Origin: an uncultured Vampirovibrio sp.
GTDB taxonomy: Bacteria; Cyanobacteriota; Vampirovibrionia; Gastranaerophilales; Gastranaerophilaceae
Length of the DNA: 64,000 bases
Assembly (NCBI GenBank): GCA_910577635.1
Contig: CAJTNR010000004.1
Coordinates: forward strand, 19,538-83,537
Direction of reading: 5' to 3'
The notes below the pieces were generated by a model that saw only the letters and a program-made list of their open reading frames with translations, did not search any database and was not told where the DNA came from. Made by a program: the position numbers and the translations under genes. Shown here piece after piece: positions 3,998 through 28,753 of the stretch (its first letter is position 1; every line of letters begins with the position of its first letter).

Positions 3998-5199
3998 AAA
4001 TAGCTTTCTATAAGTGCTTTGATATTTGAATCTTGTATTTGTTCAATAACGAGCTCATTAACTGAATCAGCCATATTCAATTGGGATAGAACACTAACAC
4101 TTTTTGCAATATAGCTTGGTTTTAGAGAGTTTGTGTTAATTAACTCAACAAGTTTATTAGAACTATCAGCAAGATTGAATTCTTTTATTATTGAAAGTGC
4201 GCAATCGAATCTGTAAGGAGTATTTTTGGCTTCATCAAGTTCTTTATCAAGTTTTATATAACTAAAACTTAAAGATTGAAGATGGCTTACAATTTTTGTT
4301 AACAATTCTTTAGAATTCTTATCTAAATCGAATAAATAAGACTCATTGTTTAAAAATTCTTCAAATTTTATCTTGGTTAAGCTAAGAACATTGTATGCAT
4401 ACTGGGTTTTTATGTCTTGAATAAATTTTATATAATCATAAACCTGATAAAACTCAATCGTATCAAGACTTGTATCTTCAGGATAAGAATCAATTAGAAT
4501 ATTAAAAATCTTTACAATTTCATCCGAATTAAGTGCTTTTTTTATAGAATCAAAACTATTGTAGTCAAGCAAAGCTGCAATAATAGTTGAAGCAAAGGGA
4601 TTTTTGGAAATATTTCTTGCGATGAACTTAATTGAATTTTCACCGCCATATGCACTGATAAACTCAAAAGCTTCCAGAGTTTCAAATTCGTCTTTGGAGT
4701 TTAGTACAAGTTCAAGCATTTTATTGAGAGTTTTTTTGTCTTCAAAAACACTCAAGGTTTGTGCACAGTTGATTTTTAAAGGTTTATAGGAGCTAAAAGC
4801 TTCTTTGTTAAGATATTCAAGAGCAAGAGTATCTTTTATATGGCTAAAATACAGTGCACAATATGTTTTTTGTTCTTTTGTCCCGTTTTTAAAAGTATCC
4901 AAGATTCTATCAGTTAGACTTTCATTCGCAAATTTTAACCAGGACTTAATTATGATTTCTTCAAAATCTGATGAGTAAATTTTTGCAAATTCAAAAATTG
5001 CATCTAAGTTTTCTTCGTTAACTAACTTAACAAAATCTTCAATTATTCTTTCTTTAAGAAAAGGAAATATAAAATCGCTATTATTTGCTAAAGTTTGAAA
5101 TTGTTCAGTATTAGTGCTTATTATAAGATTTTTGATTATATGTTTTGATAAAATAATATCTTTAGATGTAATATTTCTTATAAAATCTTTATCTATCAT
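3988..5199 (-). CDS. hypothetical protein, all-helical repeat-like
   Basis: 403-aa uninterrupted ORF in an AT-rich background. Leu/Ile/Glu/Lys-rich helical-looking sequence. No catalytic motif recognised. Confidence 0.6.
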   Translation of the reverse strand: MIDKDFIRNITSKDIILSKHIIKNLIISTNTEQFQTLANNSDFIFPFLKERIIEDFVKLVNEENLDAIFEFAKIYSSDFEEIIIKSWLKFANESLTDRILDTFKNGTKEQKTYCALYFSHIKDTLALEYLNKEAFSSYKPLKINCAQTLSVFEDKKTLNKMLELVLNSKDEFETLEAFEFISAYGGENSIKFIARNISKNPFASTIIAALLDYNSFDSIKKALNSDEIVKIFNILIDSYPEDTSLDTIEFYQVYDYIKFIQDIKTQYAYNVLSLTKIKFEEFLNNESYLFDLDKNSKELLTKIVSHLQSLSFSYIKLDKELDEAKNTPYRFDCALSIIKEFNLADSSNKLVELINTNSLKPSYIAKSVSVLSQLNMADSVNELVIEQIQDSNIKALIESYLKK

Positions 5200-26215: not shown

Positions 26216-26491
26216 TTAAAACGAGGCTATAAAGCCTCGTTTTTTATTTTTTAGCCAGCGAATAAATAGTAATAAGTTCAGTTCTTCATTTAAAAAGTTG
26301 TAATCCATAGTATATTTTTGTGCTAGTGCACTTTCATCTGTCGAATCTATCAAATTTTCAACAGTTATATATATTTCCTCAATATATTCAAGGACTATTA
26401 CAAGTTCTTTTTTAAGTTTTTTTAGCTGTTTTTTATTCAATTTGTTGACTTTAAAAATACATTGTAGACACGAAGATGATAGAAAAGACAA
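26216..26491 (-). CDS. possible hypothetical helical protein, divergent from the XRE gene
   Basis: A 91-codon open frame is unusual for an AT-rich spacer. However, it has a TTG start and no SD, its 5' end overlaps the XRE start, and its 3' end runs through the terminator hairpin. Kept as low confidence. Confidence 0.3.
   Translation of the reverse strand: MSFLSSSCLQCIFKVNKLNKKQLKKLKKELVIVLEYIEEIYITVENLIDSTDESALAQKYTMDYNFLNEELNLLLFIRWLKNKKRGFIASF
26218..26250 (+). terminator. intrinsic terminator of the oxidoreductase operon
   Basis: Stem AAACGAGGCT/AGCCTCGTTT with an ATAA loop (26218-26243), followed by TTTTTATTTT. Confidence 0.8.
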
Positions 26492-26829
26492 AAAAATATG
26501 TCTATTATAATGAAATGATAGAAGAAAGTACTATTAAAACCACTCTTGGCATGGTTATAAAAGATCTGCGGCATAAAAAAGGAATAACACAAGAAAAACT
26601 TGCAGAATTTCTTGGAATAGAAAGACAATCTATAGCAGCAATTGAAACAGGCAAAAGATTTATTTCAAGTGAATTACTTACTAAACTTTGTAATTTTTTT
26701 AATGTTGAACCTTATGTTTTCTTTTTAAAACAATCTAAAACATACAAAGAAGAAGATTTAGACAATATTAAACAAATAATTTCAATGCTTGAAAAAATAT
26801 ATAGTATTGTTTCTAAAACAAAGAGATAA
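26476..26829 (+). CDS. XRE-family helix-turn-helix transcriptional regulator
   Basis: LRHKKGITQEKLAEFLGIERQSIAAIETGKR is a classic Cro/C1-type HTH. Confidence 0.8.
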   Translation: MIEKTKKYVYYNEMIEESTIKTTLGMVIKDLRHKKGITQEKLAEFLGIERQSIAAIETGKRFISSELLTKLCNFFNVEPYVFFLKQSKTYKEEDLDNIKQIISMLEKIYSIVSKTKR

Positions 26830-26975: not shown

Positions 26976-27245
26976 ATGCAAGACGATAAAAATGTAATTT
27001 TTAGAACTGCTCTTGGAAAAGTTCTTCAAGAGCTAAGAAAAACAAATAAGAATAAATCTTTAAATAAACTTGCCCTGGAATACGATATCAACAAAGGGAG
27101 TTTAAGTAAACTTGAGCGCGGAGTCTATGATTGCCGTTTATCAACTGCTTGGAAACTCGCAGAAGCTAATGGTGTTAAATTTAGCGAATTTGCACAATTA
27201 TTAGAAAAAAACCTTGGTGAAAAATTTACTTTTATTGATTTATAA
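26976..27245 (+). CDS. XRE-family helix-turn-helix transcriptional regulator (short)
   Basis: LRKTNKNKSLNKLALEYDINKGSLSKLERGV...LSTAWKLAEANGV shows an HTH_XRE-like pattern. 89 aa. Confidence 0.75.
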   Translation: MQDDKNVIFRTALGKVLQELRKTNKNKSLNKLALEYDINKGSLSKLERGVYDCRLSTAWKLAEANGVKFSEFAQLLEKNLGEKFTFIDL

Positions 27246-27340
27246 ATACAAACTATAAAATATTTGCTAGAAAATATAGATTAAAAAAGACAGCTTTATT
27301 ATATCACAAGTGGACAAAATTATATTTATAATTGATACTA

Positions 27341-27349
27341 TGGTATAAT
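27341..27349 (+). promoter_or_regulatory. extended -10 promoter (TGgTATAAT), module 1
   Basis: TGGTATAAT at 27341-27349. No good -35 at 17-nt spacing, but extended -10 promoters do not require one. Architecture parallels module 2. Confidence 0.45.
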
Positions 27350-27441
27350 GTTTATGCAATATTATCATATATGACAAGGGAGTACAACTCTACCTCCAGC
27401 ACAGGCATTTTAACTAAAAAATCAGCTGGAAAGGAGGGTAA

Positions 27442-27522
27442 AACTATAATTTTAGAAAAATAATATTGCTATTCGTAGCATTAACTATGCTCACAGCAGC
27501 ATTAAATTTACTAAGATTATAG
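27442..27522 (+). pseudogene. decayed small hydrophobic ORF, module 1 (NYNFRKIILLFVALTMLTAALNLLRL)
   Basis: Open frame ending at TAG 27520-27522 in the same TAGGG context as the module 2 stop. It encodes a basic residue pair followed by a TM-like helix. The position aligned to the module 2 ATG reads ATA (27446-27448) and is out of frame. The only in-frame starts are TTG 27466 and ATG 27487, both far from the AAGGAGGG SD (27431-27438). Confidence 0.3.
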
Positions 27523-27566
27523 GGTGCTAAGTGAAATCTCAACAGGAATCTCAAACTTCGCTGGGA

Positions 27567-27614
27567 CTTTCTCCTATATCTATATTATACCCTATTTTAT
27601 AAAATTCAAGACTT
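27567..27614. repeat. conserved 3' box, copy 1 (CTTTCTCCTATA..ATTATACCCTATTTTATAAAATTCAAGACTT)
   Basis: Near-identical to 27976-28024 apart from small indels. On the minus strand it reads TTGAAT-14 nt-TATAAT. Confidence 0.7.
27584..27609 (-). promoter_or_regulatory. candidate antisense promoter, module 1 (TTGAAT / TATAAT, 14-nt spacer)
   Basis: Minus strand: -35 TTGAAT (27609-27604) and -10 TATAAT (27589-27584). The spacer is only 14 nt, so it may be weakened compared with the module 2 copy. Confidence 0.35.
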
Positions 27615-27744: not shown

Positions 27745-27773
27745 TTGTAAAATCAAGCTATGCTTGCTATAAT
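27745..27773 (+). promoter_or_regulatory. sigma-70 promoter with extended -10, module 2
   Basis: -35 TTGTAA (27745-27750), exactly 17-nt spacer, TGcTATAAT (27765-27773). Confidence 0.55.
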
Positions 27774-27856
27774 AATTCAAAGGGTAAGCTCCTTTTGCCG
27801 CCTGCCGCCACAGACTTGTTAAGTGGAAATTGAGCACAAAGGAGGTGATAAAAGAA

Positions 27857-27934
27857 ATGATTTTCTGTATAACAGAAAAAGCGCTATGGCTTATCTTAGT
27901 GATAATCATAACGCTTTCAATCATTTTCAAATAG
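27857..27934 (+). CDS. 25-aa hydrophobic peptide, candidate type I toxin (MIFCITEKALWLILVIIITLSIIFK)
   Basis: Not in the ORF track because it is under 60 aa. AAGGAGGTGA SD (27839-27848) with its GGAGG core 11 nt upstream of ATG 27857. A single TM-length hydrophobic stretch ends in Lys. An upstream CTCCTTT (27789-27795) is complementary to the SD region AAAGGAG (27838-27844). A 14-bp hairpin (27944-27978) follows the stop. Confidence 0.55.
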   Translation: MIFCITEKALWLILVIIITLSIIFK

Positions 27935-27975
27935 GGAGTTAAGAAGAACCTTGAGAGATAGCACCTTTCAGGGTT

Positions 27976-28024
27976 CTTTCCCTATATTTTCATTATACCC
28001 TATTTATTACAAAATTCAAGACTT
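27976..28024. repeat. conserved 3' box, copy 2
   Basis: CTTTCCCTATATTTTCATTATACCCTATTTATTACAAAATTCAAGACTT, paralogous to 27567-27614. Confidence 0.7.
27992..28019 (-). promoter_or_regulatory. convergent antisense promoter, module 2 (TTGAAT-16-TATAAT)
   Basis: Minus strand: -35 TTGAAT (28019-28014), 16-nt spacer, -10 TATAAT (27997-27992). The predicted start near 27985 points back through the hairpin and the 25-codon ORF. Confidence 0.55.
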
Positions 28025-28326
28025 GAAAGATTTTCTGAAAAAAGCGATAAAGTTTACTATGAGTTTAAAAACTTATTATTGAGATTGGCTTTTGGTAATT
28101 ACAGTTTTTTTTTATTTTTTGTATAATTTTTTAATCCCTAAAAAAACTAAAGACTAAAAGTTTTTATGCTAACTTTTTTAGCTAGCAGCAATTTTTGCAA
28201 TTTGATTGATAAATTAATAACAGGATTTATAGAAAACAACAAAAAAGTATTGCAATTGAAAATTAAAAAGATTCTTTATAAAGAATACAAAAATAGCAAA
28301 AATTTTTCAAGATTTTAATTTAAGTA

Positions 28327-28398
28327 AGCGGGAGACGGGACTCGAACCCGCGGCGTCAACCTTGGGAAGGTTGCATTCTACCACTGAATTACTCCCGC
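28327..28398 (-). tRNA. tRNA-Gly (anticodon CCC)
   Basis: The reverse complement folds as a cloverleaf: acceptor GCGGGAG/CTCCCGC, D arm ATTC..GAAT, anticodon stem CAACC/GGTTG with loop TTCCCAA, T arm with GGTTCGAGTCC. CCA is not encoded. Confidence 0.9.
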
Positions 28399-28411
28399 AT
28401 CAAAAGGTTGT

Positions 28412-28453
28412 AAAAATACAAAAACTGCCTTTTTGCAGTTTTTGTATTTTTTT
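28412..28453. terminator. 17-bp perfect hairpin between the two tRNA-Gly genes
   Basis: AAAAATACAAAAACTGC (28412-28428) pairs perfectly with GCAGTTTTTGTATTTTT (28435-28451), with loop CTTTTT. A/T tails on both sides make it terminator-like in either direction. Confidence 0.7.
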
Positions 28454-28470
28454 ATGAAATTTTTAAAAAA

Positions 28471-28546
28471 TGGAGCGGACGACGAGGTTCGAACTCGCAA
28501 CATCTTGCTTGGAAGGCAAGTACTCTACCAATTGAGCTACGTCCGC
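28471..28546 (-). tRNA. tRNA-Gly (anticodon UCC), CCA encoded
   Basis: Reverse complement: GCGGACG TA GCTC AATTGGTA GAGT A CTTGC CTTCCAA GCAAG ATGTT GCGAG TTCGAAC CTCGT CGTCCGC T CCA. Confidence 0.9.
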
Positions 28547-28573
28547 AAACAATTTTTATTCAATTATCAATTT
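28534..28573. repeat. direct repeat copy A (tRNA-Gly(UCC) 5' end plus upstream leader)
   Basis: GAGCTACGTCCGCAAACAATTTTTATTCAATTATCAATTT. It recurs at 28644-28684 with one extra base and one substitution. Confidence 0.85.
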
Positions 28574-28581
28574 TTTCGGGT

Positions 28582-28600
28582 CTGACGCAGCTCAATTGGT
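28582..28600 (+). other. inverted fragment resembling tRNA-Gly(UCC) positions about 3-20
   Basis: Plus-strand CTGACGCAGCTCAATTGGT compared with the tRNA sense strand (minus) GGACGTAGCTCAATTGGT. Two mismatches, opposite orientation. Confidence 0.5.
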
Positions 28601-28643
28601 TTATTACTATTTTTCATTGCCTCAACTAAAGTTTCTGCAACGG

Positions 28644-28684
28644 GAGCTACGTTTCGCAAACAATTTTTATTCAATTATCAATTT
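28644..28684. repeat. direct repeat copy B
   Basis: GAGCTACGTTTCGCAAACAATTTTTATTCAATTATCAATTT, about 110 nt from copy A. It lacks the rest of a tRNA. Confidence 0.85.
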
Positions 28685-28753
28685 ATTCTGCAAAAAATTC
28701 TTTGCTTACCAAACAATAATTTAACAAAAAAATAAAATATTTGCAAGAATTTT

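Follow-up and report, generated by a model that had tools for sequence, protein, structure and literature searches.

A new type I toxin-antitoxin-like family in Melainabacteria

Does a 280-nucleotide stretch with a 25-codon hydrophobic ORF, a sequestered Shine-Dalgarno (SD) sequence and a convergent antisense promoter represent a genuine type I toxin-antitoxin module, or a chance arrangement of AT-rich DNA? A first-pass annotation of a 64-kb window (the whole stretch of DNA analyzed, 64,000 nucleotides of contig CAJTNR010000004.1 from an uncultured Vampirovibrio sp. of the Gastranaerophilales, Melainabacteria) proposed such a module at positions 27745-28024. To get a clearer picture, we re-examined the locus and searched for homologous modules in related genomes. 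Every feature listed in that annotation was found where it had been placed, and the observation is therefore confirmed. The locus contains the following features:

27745-27773, plus strand: promoter of the peptide mRNA, TTGTAA-17-TATAAT with a TG extension (TGcTATAAT), with a predicted transcription start at about 27780 (AAGGGTAAGC).
27780-27856, plus strand: 5' leader of about 77 nt, with a near-invariant 5' GGGUAAGCU, anti-SD CUCCUUU (27789-27795), a loop with CACAGAC (27809-27815), an "address" hexamer GUUAAG (27818-27823) and SD AAGGAGGUGA (27839-27848).
27857-27934, plus strand: 25-codon ORF, from ATG 27857 to TAG, encoding MIFCITEKALWLILVIIITLSIIFK, with one predicted membrane helix and a terminal Lys.
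27876-27917, minus strand: hairpin inside the ORF (27878-27917), followed on the minus strand by UUUUU (27880-27876), the inferred intrinsic terminator of the antisense RNA; on the plus strand it is mRNA secondary structure.
27931-27985, plus strand: 3'UTR structure, in which a closing stem AUAGGGA (27931-27937)/UCCCUAU (27979-27985) encloses a 6-nt bulge GUUAAG (27938-27943) and the terminator hairpin (27944-27978); UUUU follows at 27987-27990.
27992-28019, minus strand: antisense promoter TTGAAT-16-TATAAT (28019-27992), with a predicted start at A, about 27985.
27876-27985, minus strand: predicted antisense RNA of about 110 nt, complementary to codons 7-25 and to the 3'UTR, inferred from the promoter and terminator positions; its bulge CUUAAC is complementary to the leader hexamer.
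27339-27614, plus strand: degenerate tandem paralogue.

In the minimum-energy fold of 27780-27990, CTCCTTT at 27789-27795 pairs with AAAGGAG at 27838-27844; the fold has z = -6.2, and 0 of 200 shuffles were as stable. The 3' hairpin is terminator-like (27943-27979, 15 pairs). When both strands of the window were scanned for an SD followed by a strongly hydrophobic ORF of 18-45 codons, only this ORF was returned.

One correction is needed, since the first-pass annotation missed that the whole module is tandemly duplicated. Positions 27393-27614 are homologous to 27801-28024 (nhmmer E 1e-5 to 1e-7; E 2e-10 against the family profile described below), and the block taken as the antisense promoter consequently occurs twice (27573-27614 and 27981-28024). 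The upstream copy retains TGgTATAAT (27341-27349), anti-SD CCUCC (27393-27397), SD GGAGG (27433-27437), a 25-codon hydrophobic frame, YNFRKIILLFVALTMLTAALNLLRL (27445-27522), and the 3' block (27573-27614). However, it shows signs of decay: TAT sits where the ATG should be, the leader and UTR hexamers do not match, and the antisense promoter spacer is shortened to 14 nt.

To find homologous modules, we first examined close relatives. Same-species contigs (L081-L090) are 99.3%-100% identical and were uninformative, with no change in the ORF and one change in the leader. No gene was called in this interval on these contigs, and a 34-aa TTG-extended version of the ORF is not on record. The dapL-flanking regions of 14 related MAGs hold no module; the locus is not syntenic. 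The XRE-neighbour contigs of P0003, P0004 and P0009 hold no module either. Exact-pattern scans built on the 3' repeat block (TATACCCTATTT..TAYAAAATTCAAGAC in genome contigs, and a looser version in metagenome contigs) found nothing; that block is species-specific. In contrast, a homologous module was found in the nearest species (locus L091, nhmmer E 1e-14), and two further pattern scans recovered 9 plus about 70 further loci, nearly all in Gastranaerophilales/Melainabacteria MAGs and two complete genomes (CP017245 and OZ007029); all relatives are MAGs or uncultured genomes. Because these patterns fixed parts of the sequence (CACAGACTTGT with AAGGAGGTGAT, then GAAAAAGCGCTA...ATAATCATA), invariance of those blocks reflects ascertainment and is not evidence. 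A profile built from the family finds 93 modules, so that the family comprises at least 93 copies in about 55 species-level genomes of the order, often several per genome and in tandem arrays of up to 4.

We next asked whether the ORF is coding or merely incidental to a non-coding structured RNA or repeat element. The latter could be argued from the strong conservation of RNA structure on both strands, from the overlap of the ORF core with a conserved hairpin, and from the fact that the element is repeated and sometimes flanked by short direct repeats. However, in the main subfamily (64 copies) the frame of 24-26 codons is intact in 60, giving 59 distinct peptides with lengths of 72, 75, 78 or 81 nt only, and a start codon lies about 7 nt after the SD in 63 of 64 copies. 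Indels occur only in multiples of 3 nt, in a hypervariable tail that has 52 distinct sequences of only 12, 15 or 18 nt. This tail has 0 of 56 in-frame stops, against 12 and 24 in the other frames and a mean of 17 (minimum 8) in shuffles. Its last residue is K or R in 54 of 56, and per-position entropy runs pos2 < pos1 < pos3. The constraints on the ORF hairpin and on the peptide core cannot be separated, since both are encoded by the same bases. Readings of the element as a MITE or att site were rejected, since no terminal inverted repeats were seen around the module and the repeated block is the internal 3' end of tandem units. We therefore consider a purely non-coding element very unlikely.

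Covariation supports the folded structure of the mRNA. In the alignment, 95.6% of cells are paired, compared with 88.4% in shuffles, and 20 pairs show double changes; 0 of 500 shuffles reached the observed values, and slid controls gave 40%-53%. The SD and anti-SD co-vary (CCUCC:GGAGG in 23 copies versus CCACC:GGUGG in 17, counted by alignment column; centre pair U-A 22, A-U 20), and an adjacent 3-bp helix co-varies in 52 of 56 copies. In the copy under study the canonical anti-SD position is mutated and occlusion relies on a shifted CUCCUUU. The ORF hairpin is 95% paired across 56 members, 12 of 14 pairs in the 3' hairpin show compensatory changes, and the closing stem is 98% paired. A possible pairing of CACAGAC with the 5' arm of the ORF hairpin was rejected because the leader motif does not change when that hairpin co-varies.

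The minus-strand promoter lies at the same alignment columns in all members while its spacer sequence varies freely. Of 90 modules, 88 match TTGAAA/TTGACA-16/17-TATAAT at 9/12 or better; the -10 box is TATAAT in 60 and AATAAT in 19, and the spacer is 16 nt in 62 and 17 nt in 26. Two family loci, L103 and L101, score 11/12. The sense promoter is weaker and more variable: a -10 box lies at the homologous position in family members, and 50 of 69 modules have a 9/12 or better match there. Folding of the minus strand gives the ORF hairpin followed by the U-tract as the inferred antisense terminator, although a simple terminator scanner does not detect it. In one family locus, L100, an unrelated 7-bp stem, GTCCTAG/CTAGGAC, preceded by A6, occupies the same place. 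It could be argued that the minus-strand element is a DNA-binding site, or a promoter whose transcript stops at the first hairpin, leaving only a self-occluded small gene: the 3' hairpin lies immediately downstream of the predicted start, and AT-rich DNA gives promoter-like matches easily (11 found against 7.4 expected in 1.8 kb). The conserved position of the -35, spacer length and -10 argues against this. In addition, the first hairpin on the minus strand is not followed by a U-tract, whereas the ORF hairpin is, and the hexamer coupling described next has no explanation without a minus-strand RNA carrying the complement. We regard this alternative as improbable, with the antisense RNA itself predicted from sequence alone.

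The leader hexamer is identical to the 3'UTR bulge hexamer in 60 of 63 copies (permutation mean 33.8, maximum 46 in 10,000 permutations), with about 11 coupled switches. Fitch changes on a neighbour-joining tree number 14 for the leader, 11 for the UTR and 14 jointly, and adjacent paralogues in one genome carry different matched hexamers (seen in the paralogue pairs at L132 and at L159). In the fold of the antisense RNA, CUUAAC is the only unpaired stretch of the 5' domain. The predicted leader/antisense duplex is -14.6 kcal/mol, and predicted duplexes are about 3.6 kcal/mol weaker between different hexamer classes. Intramolecular pairing of the two hexamers is excluded, because direct repeats such as GUUAUG and GUAAUG are not self-complementary. 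The coupling would imply that the antisense RNA also contacts the leader in trans, although such a contact is only 6-11 nt and AU-rich, and no leader/3'UTR repeat signal was detected in the divergent subfamily B.

Database comparisons gave no match to any known RNA or protein family. No Rfam family reached gathering score in the window apart from 2 tRNAs, and at E up to 10 only noise hits were seen (for example Teg49, 28 bits against a 186-bit threshold), with none to the known antitoxin RNA families (RatA, SR4-type, Sok, Sib, RNAII, IstR and others). Pfam returned no hit for 40 members, NCBIfam gave no family, and the anti-phage defence profiles of PADLOC returned no hit for three representative peptides. 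IMG/VR, PLSDB plasmids and INPHARED phages gave no match.

Taken together, these results support the interpretation given in the first-pass annotation, and we are fairly confident that the locus is a chromosomal type I toxin-antitoxin-like module. In this view, a moderate promoter makes a roughly 210-nt mRNA (about 27780-27990) for a 25-residue single-helix membrane peptide, and in the nascent or free mRNA the SD is locked in a stem with the upstream anti-SD, so translation would be occluded. Hydrophobic peptides of under about 60 aa are characteristic of the type I class, in which intramolecular SD occlusion of the toxin mRNA is common, though not universal. A stronger convergent promoter just beyond the 3' hairpin would make the roughly 110-nt antisense RNA ending at the hairpin plus U-tract inside the ORF. 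This RNA would be fully complementary to the last two thirds of the ORF and to the 3'UTR, so that the duplex would lead to degradation. Its CUUAAC bulge could also pair in trans with the matching hexamer in the loop of the SD-sequestering stem-loop, providing a second contact next to the ribosome-binding site and giving each paralogue its own specificity. The analysis itself demonstrates the homology and copy number of the family, coding constraint on the ORF, covariation of the SD helix and 3' hairpin, positional conservation of the antisense promoter and coupling of the two hexamers; that both RNAs are made and where they end, that the peptide is toxic and that the antisense RNA represses it are inferences.

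The computational evidence supports a small membrane peptide with a cis-antisense RNA and SD occlusion without bearing on toxicity. The peptide might thus be a non-toxic regulatory or accessory subunit of a membrane complex, whose level the antisense RNA simply tunes; most copies are intact (60 of 64), and the module has no fixed protein-coding partner. We consider this unlikely, since multi-copy and tandem amplification, rapid diversification, a stronger antisense than sense promoter and double translational locks are typical of type I toxins and unusual for housekeeping small proteins. The same holds for sporadic ORF-inactivating mutations in otherwise intact RNA scaffolds (a frameshift in L091, a nonsense mutation in locus L107, start loss in locus L129, and the upstream copy in the window), which are the only indirect hint of toxicity. 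In addition, L100 carries an unrelated peptide in the same scaffold. A bolder reading is possible, though we hold it as less likely than not: the hexamer (GUUAAG, GUUAUG, GUAAUG, GCAAUG, GUGAAG) would be a specificity code, letting several paralogous antisense RNAs in one Melainabacteria genome each control only their own mRNA through a trans kissing contact beside the ribosome-binding site. The RNA scaffold would then be a portable cassette able to host unrelated peptides, as in L100, and the family a lineage-specific, expandable set of orthogonal RNA-controlled membrane effectors, possibly stress- or phage-triggered, and not a single addiction module.

We found no report of type I systems in this lineage and nothing similar to the module in the literature. 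A 2025 paper states that such systems were known only from Proteobacteria, Firmicutes and Tenericutes, plus one new cyanobacterial candidate (PMC12390103), and short peptides and antisense RNAs have been proposed to escape homology searches (PMC5367252). The present finding would add a well-populated, unannotated family in Gastranaerophilales, uncultured non-photosynthetic relatives of cyanobacteria that live in human and animal guts, with a regulatory architecture mapped base by base through covariation. It supplies concrete peptide, antisense RNA and hexamer constructs, a natural set of matched and mismatched RNA pairs for studying antitoxin specificity, and a profile for annotating these loci in MAGs, where no gene is currently called.

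Several known systems resemble the module in part. MsoT1/MsoA1 of Microcystis aeruginosa, the first candidate type I system in Cyanobacteria, comes from the sister lineage, and its antisense RNA overlaps the 3' end of the ORF and the 3'UTR (PMC12390103). However, MsoT1 is 63 aa with two predicted membrane helices and a high pI, is unrelated in sequence, and is supported by toxicity data, whereas toxicity of the present peptide is only inferred. The multi-copy chromosomal Ibs/Sib, Ldr/Rdl and Zor/Orz loci of Enterobacteria also encode very short hydrophobic peptides in several diverged copies per genome, often in tandem, and each antisense RNA reportedly discriminates its own mRNA (Fozo et al. 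2010 and related work); a tandem-repeat criterion is mentioned in the T1TAdb paper. Their geometry differs, with Sib covering the whole ibs ORF and Rdl and Orz acting at the 5' end, and there is no sequence similarity.

In TxpA/RatA, BsrG/SR4 and related Bacillus systems, the cis-encoded antisense RNA is likewise convergent and overlaps the 3' part of the ORF and the 3'UTR (T1TAdb paper), and the toxin is a small single-helix membrane peptide. Those toxins are longer (38-59 aa). There is no homology to them and no Rfam hit to their antitoxin RNAs, and no co-varying leader repeat is known for them. In SprA1/SprA1AS of Staphylococcus aureus, the antisense RNA is encoded at the 3' side and overlaps the mRNA, while the functional interaction lies outside the overlap, at the 5' region (T1TAdb paper); PepA1, however, belongs to the Fst family, and there is no sequence or RNA-family similarity.

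The par system (Fst/RNA II) of Enterococcus faecalis pAD1 and its chromosomal homologues differ in that Fst-type toxins have a hydrophobic domain with a PXXXG(C) motif, a conserved Trp and a charged C-terminal tail (PMC7472228). The consensus of the present peptides, M-x-F-[CS]-I-T-E-K-A-L-W-L-I-L-x-I-I-I-A-L-x-x-x-K, has no Pro or Gly motif, and its tail is a single K. In par the two RNAs share a bidirectional terminator, whereas here the predicted antisense RNA overlaps two thirds of the ORF, starts at the 3' hairpin and appears to have its own terminator in a different hairpin inside the ORF. A single 6-11-nt repeat is placed in a loop and a bulge, rather than DRa and DRb covering the start codon and SD, and the host is a diderm of the Cyanobacteriota/Melainabacteria group. 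Nevertheless, par shows convergent promoters, a 5' stem-loop that sequesters the SD, and a DNA direct repeat transcribed in opposite directions that gives the antitoxin RNA a second region of complementarity near the ribosome-binding site, outside the overlap, with repeat sequences that differ between paralogues and prevent cross-talk (PMC7472228; T1TAdb paper). The co-varying direct repeat linking the leader and the 3'UTR corresponds to this arrangement as an analogy of mechanism, not as homology.

The first-pass annotation had described a forward promoter, a leader able to pair with the Shine-Dalgarno (SD) region, a 25-codon hydrophobic ORF, a hairpin beyond it and a promoter on the opposite strand directed back across the ORF. 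Its description holds in full, as each of these elements is present in the sequence:

27745-27773, plus strand, predicted promoter TTGTAA-17-TATAAT with a TG extension
27789-27795, plus strand, CTCCTTT (anti-SD)
27838-27844, plus strand, AAAGGAG, the SD region (SD AAGGAGGTGA)
27857-27934, plus strand, ORF from the ATG at 27857 to TAG 27932-27934, encoding MIFCITEKALWLILVIIITLSIIFK
27943-27979, the only terminator-like hairpin of the region
28019-27992, minus strand, predicted promoter TTGAAT-16-TATAAT

Folding of 27780-27990 as RNA gave -68.6 kcal/mol (z = -6.2; 0 of 200 shuffles as stable), with the anti-SD paired to the SD, a long hairpin in the ORF and a 3' stem-loop. When both strands of the 64-kb window were scanned for an SD followed by a short, strongly hydrophobic ORF, only this ORF was returned.

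The first-pass annotation missed that the module is tandemly duplicated. The block CCTATAT..ATTATACCCTATTT..AAAATTCAAGACTT occurs at 27573-27614 and at 27981-28024, and homology extends over about 220 nt (27393-27614 against 27801-28024; nhmmer E 1e-5 to 1e-7). The upstream copy keeps a TGgTATAAT box, a CCUCC/GGAGG pair that is paired in its fold (z = -3.7), a 25-codon hydrophobic frame that ends at the homologous TAG, and the 3' block. However, TAT stands exactly where the ATG should be, 7 nt after GGAGG, the minus-strand promoter spacer is 2 nt shorter, and the leader and 3'UTR hexamers do not match. We read this copy as a decaying paralogue.

The neighbouring LL-diaminopimelate aminotransferase places the window in Gastranaerophilales/Melainabacteria, with a best match of 84% identity. 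Same-species contigs are nearly identical and uninformative. The only other haplotype of this species differs at 6 bases plus a 2-nt deletion (28105-28106) in 1.1 kb (window positions 27785, 27572 and 27381 compared with the same-species contigs L082-L090): 27572 T>C restores the UCCCUAU arm of the decayed upstream copy, and 27785 T>C changes GGGTAAG to GGGCAAG, the form of a second subfamily, B, described below. Next to the module (28327-28546 on the minus strand, 28519-28608 and 28544-28688) lie two tRNA-Gly genes (ccc, tcc), with an inverted partial copy of the tRNA-Gly(tcc) 3' half at 28584-28608 and a 34-nt direct repeat at 28544-28577 and 28655-28688. Related genomes keep only tRNA-Gly(tcc) after dapL, which suggests past rearrangement or integration at this spot.

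The XRE-type gene just upstream of the module has an 82%-identical homologue in the nearest MAG (locus L091), where a homologous module (nhmmer E 1e-14) follows it directly in a different genomic neighbourhood. A pair of small XRE-type helix-turn-helix genes lies directly upstream of the module on the same strand in the window (26476-26829 and 26976-27245, plus strand), in this nearest species (L091:3580-4270) and in two more genomes (L159:1973-2683; L175:4780-5473), whereas most other modules have no such neighbour. This may be a mobile cassette of XRE, XRE and the peptide module, or a regulatory link. In L091, a 33-nt direct repeat (TTATTATTTTTCAAGCCGTTTTAGAATTGC; 4339-4368 and 4630-4660) flanks the single module, and its upstream copy looks like the tail of a deleted tandem unit.

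To find additional family members, we used a pattern taken from the leader (CACAGACTTGT..AAGGAGGTGAT), which found 9 further Melainabacteria loci. A pattern from the ORF hairpin found 79 loci, nearly all Gastranaerophilales/Melainabacteria/'Vampirovibrio' MAGs and two complete genomes; by accession prefix this is about 55 species-level genomes. Two module-bearing contigs, L104 (JAHALR010000014.1) and L130 (CAZRHI010000214.1), are labelled Clostridium sp. and Acetobacter sp. MAGs; these are probably mis-binned Melainabacteria contigs, although horizontal spread was not excluded. A profile search of the fetched loci found 93 modules, with several per genome and tandem arrays of up to four. Nothing similar is present in IMG/VR, PLSDB plasmids or INPHARED phages. 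The divergent subfamily B (L144:5858-7100, with four tandem copies; L147, L166, L121, L123, L172 and others) has the same peptide core and antisense promoter but a different 3'UTR (GGGCUUUUAA...GCCCUU).

We next asked whether the ORF evolves as a coding sequence. In the main subfamily (64 modules), 60 frames are intact, with 59 different peptides, ORF lengths of 72, 75, 78 or 81 nt only, and ATG (38), GTG (23) or TTG (2) starts. The consensus is M-x-F-[CS]-I-T-E-K-A-L-W-L-I-L-x-I-I-I-A-L-x-x-x-K. The C-terminal tail is hypervariable, with 52 distinct sequences, but comes only in lengths of 12, 15 or 18 nt. No in-frame stop was found in 56 tails, compared with 12 and 24 in the other two frames; shuffled tails gave a mean of 17.4 and a minimum of 8. 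The tail ends in K or R in 54 of 56 cases, and per-position entropy is lowest at codon position 2 and highest at position 3 (0.38, 0.53 and 0.67 for positions 2, 1 and 3). We conclude that this is coding-type evolution. Four modules carry a frameshift, a nonsense codon or a lost start inside an otherwise conserved RNA scaffold, as does the window's upstream copy.

The RNA architecture of the sense strand was tested by placing a hand-written five-helix structure on a MAFFT alignment of 56 distinct predicted mRNAs. In this structure 95.6% of cells are paired, compared with 88.4% in shuffles and 40-53% when partners are slid; 20 pairs have changes on both sides, and 0 of 500 shuffles reached any observed measure. 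The centre of the SD helix switches between U-A (22) and A-U (20), corresponding to CCUCC:GGAGG against CCACC:GGUGG. The three bases next to the anti-SD (CCG, CCU or CUG) find their reverse complement just 5' of the SD in 52 of 56 copies (permutation maximum, 42). A small hairpin right after the start codon co-varies (U-A 31, A-U 20), which converts Cys to Ser while keeping Thr, and the 3' hairpin has compensatory changes at 12 of its 14 pairs. In this window's copy the canonical anti-SD is mutated, and the upstream CUCCUUU noted in the first-pass annotation takes its place. The mRNA 5' end GGGUAAGCU and the loop motif CACAGAC (window 27782-27790 and 27809-27815; columns 1-14 and 42-48 of the family alignment A5) are nearly invariant, even in members found with a pattern that did not include them, but no pairing partner or function was found for them.

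In all ten leader-ascertained members, the minus strand carries TTGAAA, TTGACA, TTGAAT or TTGCTA, then 16 nt, then TATAAT, at the same alignment columns while the spacer sequence varies freely. Over 90 modules, 88 match at 9/12 or better; TATAAT occurs in 60 and AATAAT in 19, and the spacer is 16 nt in 62 and 17 nt in 26. A promoter scan gave 11/12 for family loci L103 and L101. The sense promoter is weaker and less conserved (50 of 69). A transcript starting about 7 nt downstream of the minus-strand promoter (A at 27985) would read through the complement of the 3' hairpin and the ORF tail and reach the ORF hairpin, which on this strand is followed by UUUUU, the complement of the Glu-Lys codons GAAAAA. 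This terminator is inferred and is not flagged by a simple terminator scan; the predicted antisense RNA would be about 110 nt (27985 to about 27876). One family member, L100 (3087-3392, minus strand), keeps the whole RNA scaffold and both promoters but encodes an unrelated, amphipathic 24-aa peptide (MKRDIIKKVLATLGHLIQILAEFV). It still has an A6 run followed by a different perfect 7-bp hairpin at this place inside the ORF, which argues that the hairpin plus U-tract is selected for itself.

The hexamer after CACAGACUU in the leader loop equals the hexamer after AUAGGGA in the 3'UTR in 60 of 63 modules (GTTAAG 43, GTTATG 13, GTAATG 3, GCAATG 1), whereas permuting partners gave a mean of 33.8 and never more than 46 in 10,000 trials. 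On a neighbour-joining tree built without these positions, Fitch parsimony needs 14 changes for the leader motif, 11 for the 3'UTR motif and 14 for the pair. Therefore, essentially every 3'UTR change coincides with a leader change. Tandem neighbours in the same genome (L132, L159) carry different matched hexamers. Direct repeats cannot pair with each other, and the only partner that automatically tracks the 3'UTR copy is the antisense RNA. In the covariation-supported structure the hexamer is the 6-nt bulge between the closing stem and the hairpin. Predicted leader/antisense duplexes average -10.5 kcal/mol for cognate pairs and -6.9 kcal/mol across hexamer classes; this window's pair gives -14.6 kcal/mol. 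No leader/3'UTR repeat was detected in subfamily B.

We propose that the sense mRNA is made with its SD locked. In this view, an abundant antisense RNA would pair over 110 nt with the ORF and 3'UTR and would also touch the loop of the SD-sequestering stem-loop through the hexamer, keeping the peptide off and marking the mRNA for decay, while loss of the antisense RNA would allow synthesis of a membrane-active peptide. The first part of this scheme rests on covariation, while the last two steps are inferred from the behaviour of known type I systems; expression, toxicity and rescue likewise belong among the inferences. The finding is real, and the type I toxin-antitoxin reading of the first-pass annotation holds as far as sequence analysis can take it. 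The module represents a new family of such type I-like loci in a lineage where none was charted, with an unusually complete covariation-based map and a testable specificity determinant.

Literature searches on Melainabacteria or Gastranaerophilales together with type I systems, antisense RNA or the peptide motif returned nothing relevant. The only reported cyanobacterial candidate, MsoT1/MsoA1, has an unrelated 63-aa toxin with two helices. The overlap geometry of the module resembles that of TxpA/RatA and BsrG/SR4, and SprA1/SprA1AS, like par/Fst-RNA II, acts outside the 3' overlap (T1TAdb paper). Membership in any of these families, or in par/Fst-RNA II, fails, as there is no Fst motif, no Pfam, NCBIfam or PADLOC hit, no Rfam hit and no shared bidirectional terminator. 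The closest working analogue is nevertheless par/Fst-RNA II, which has convergent promoters, a 5' stem-loop that hides the SD, and DNA direct repeats transcribed from both strands that give a second, specificity-determining complementarity near the ribosome-binding site (PMC7472228).
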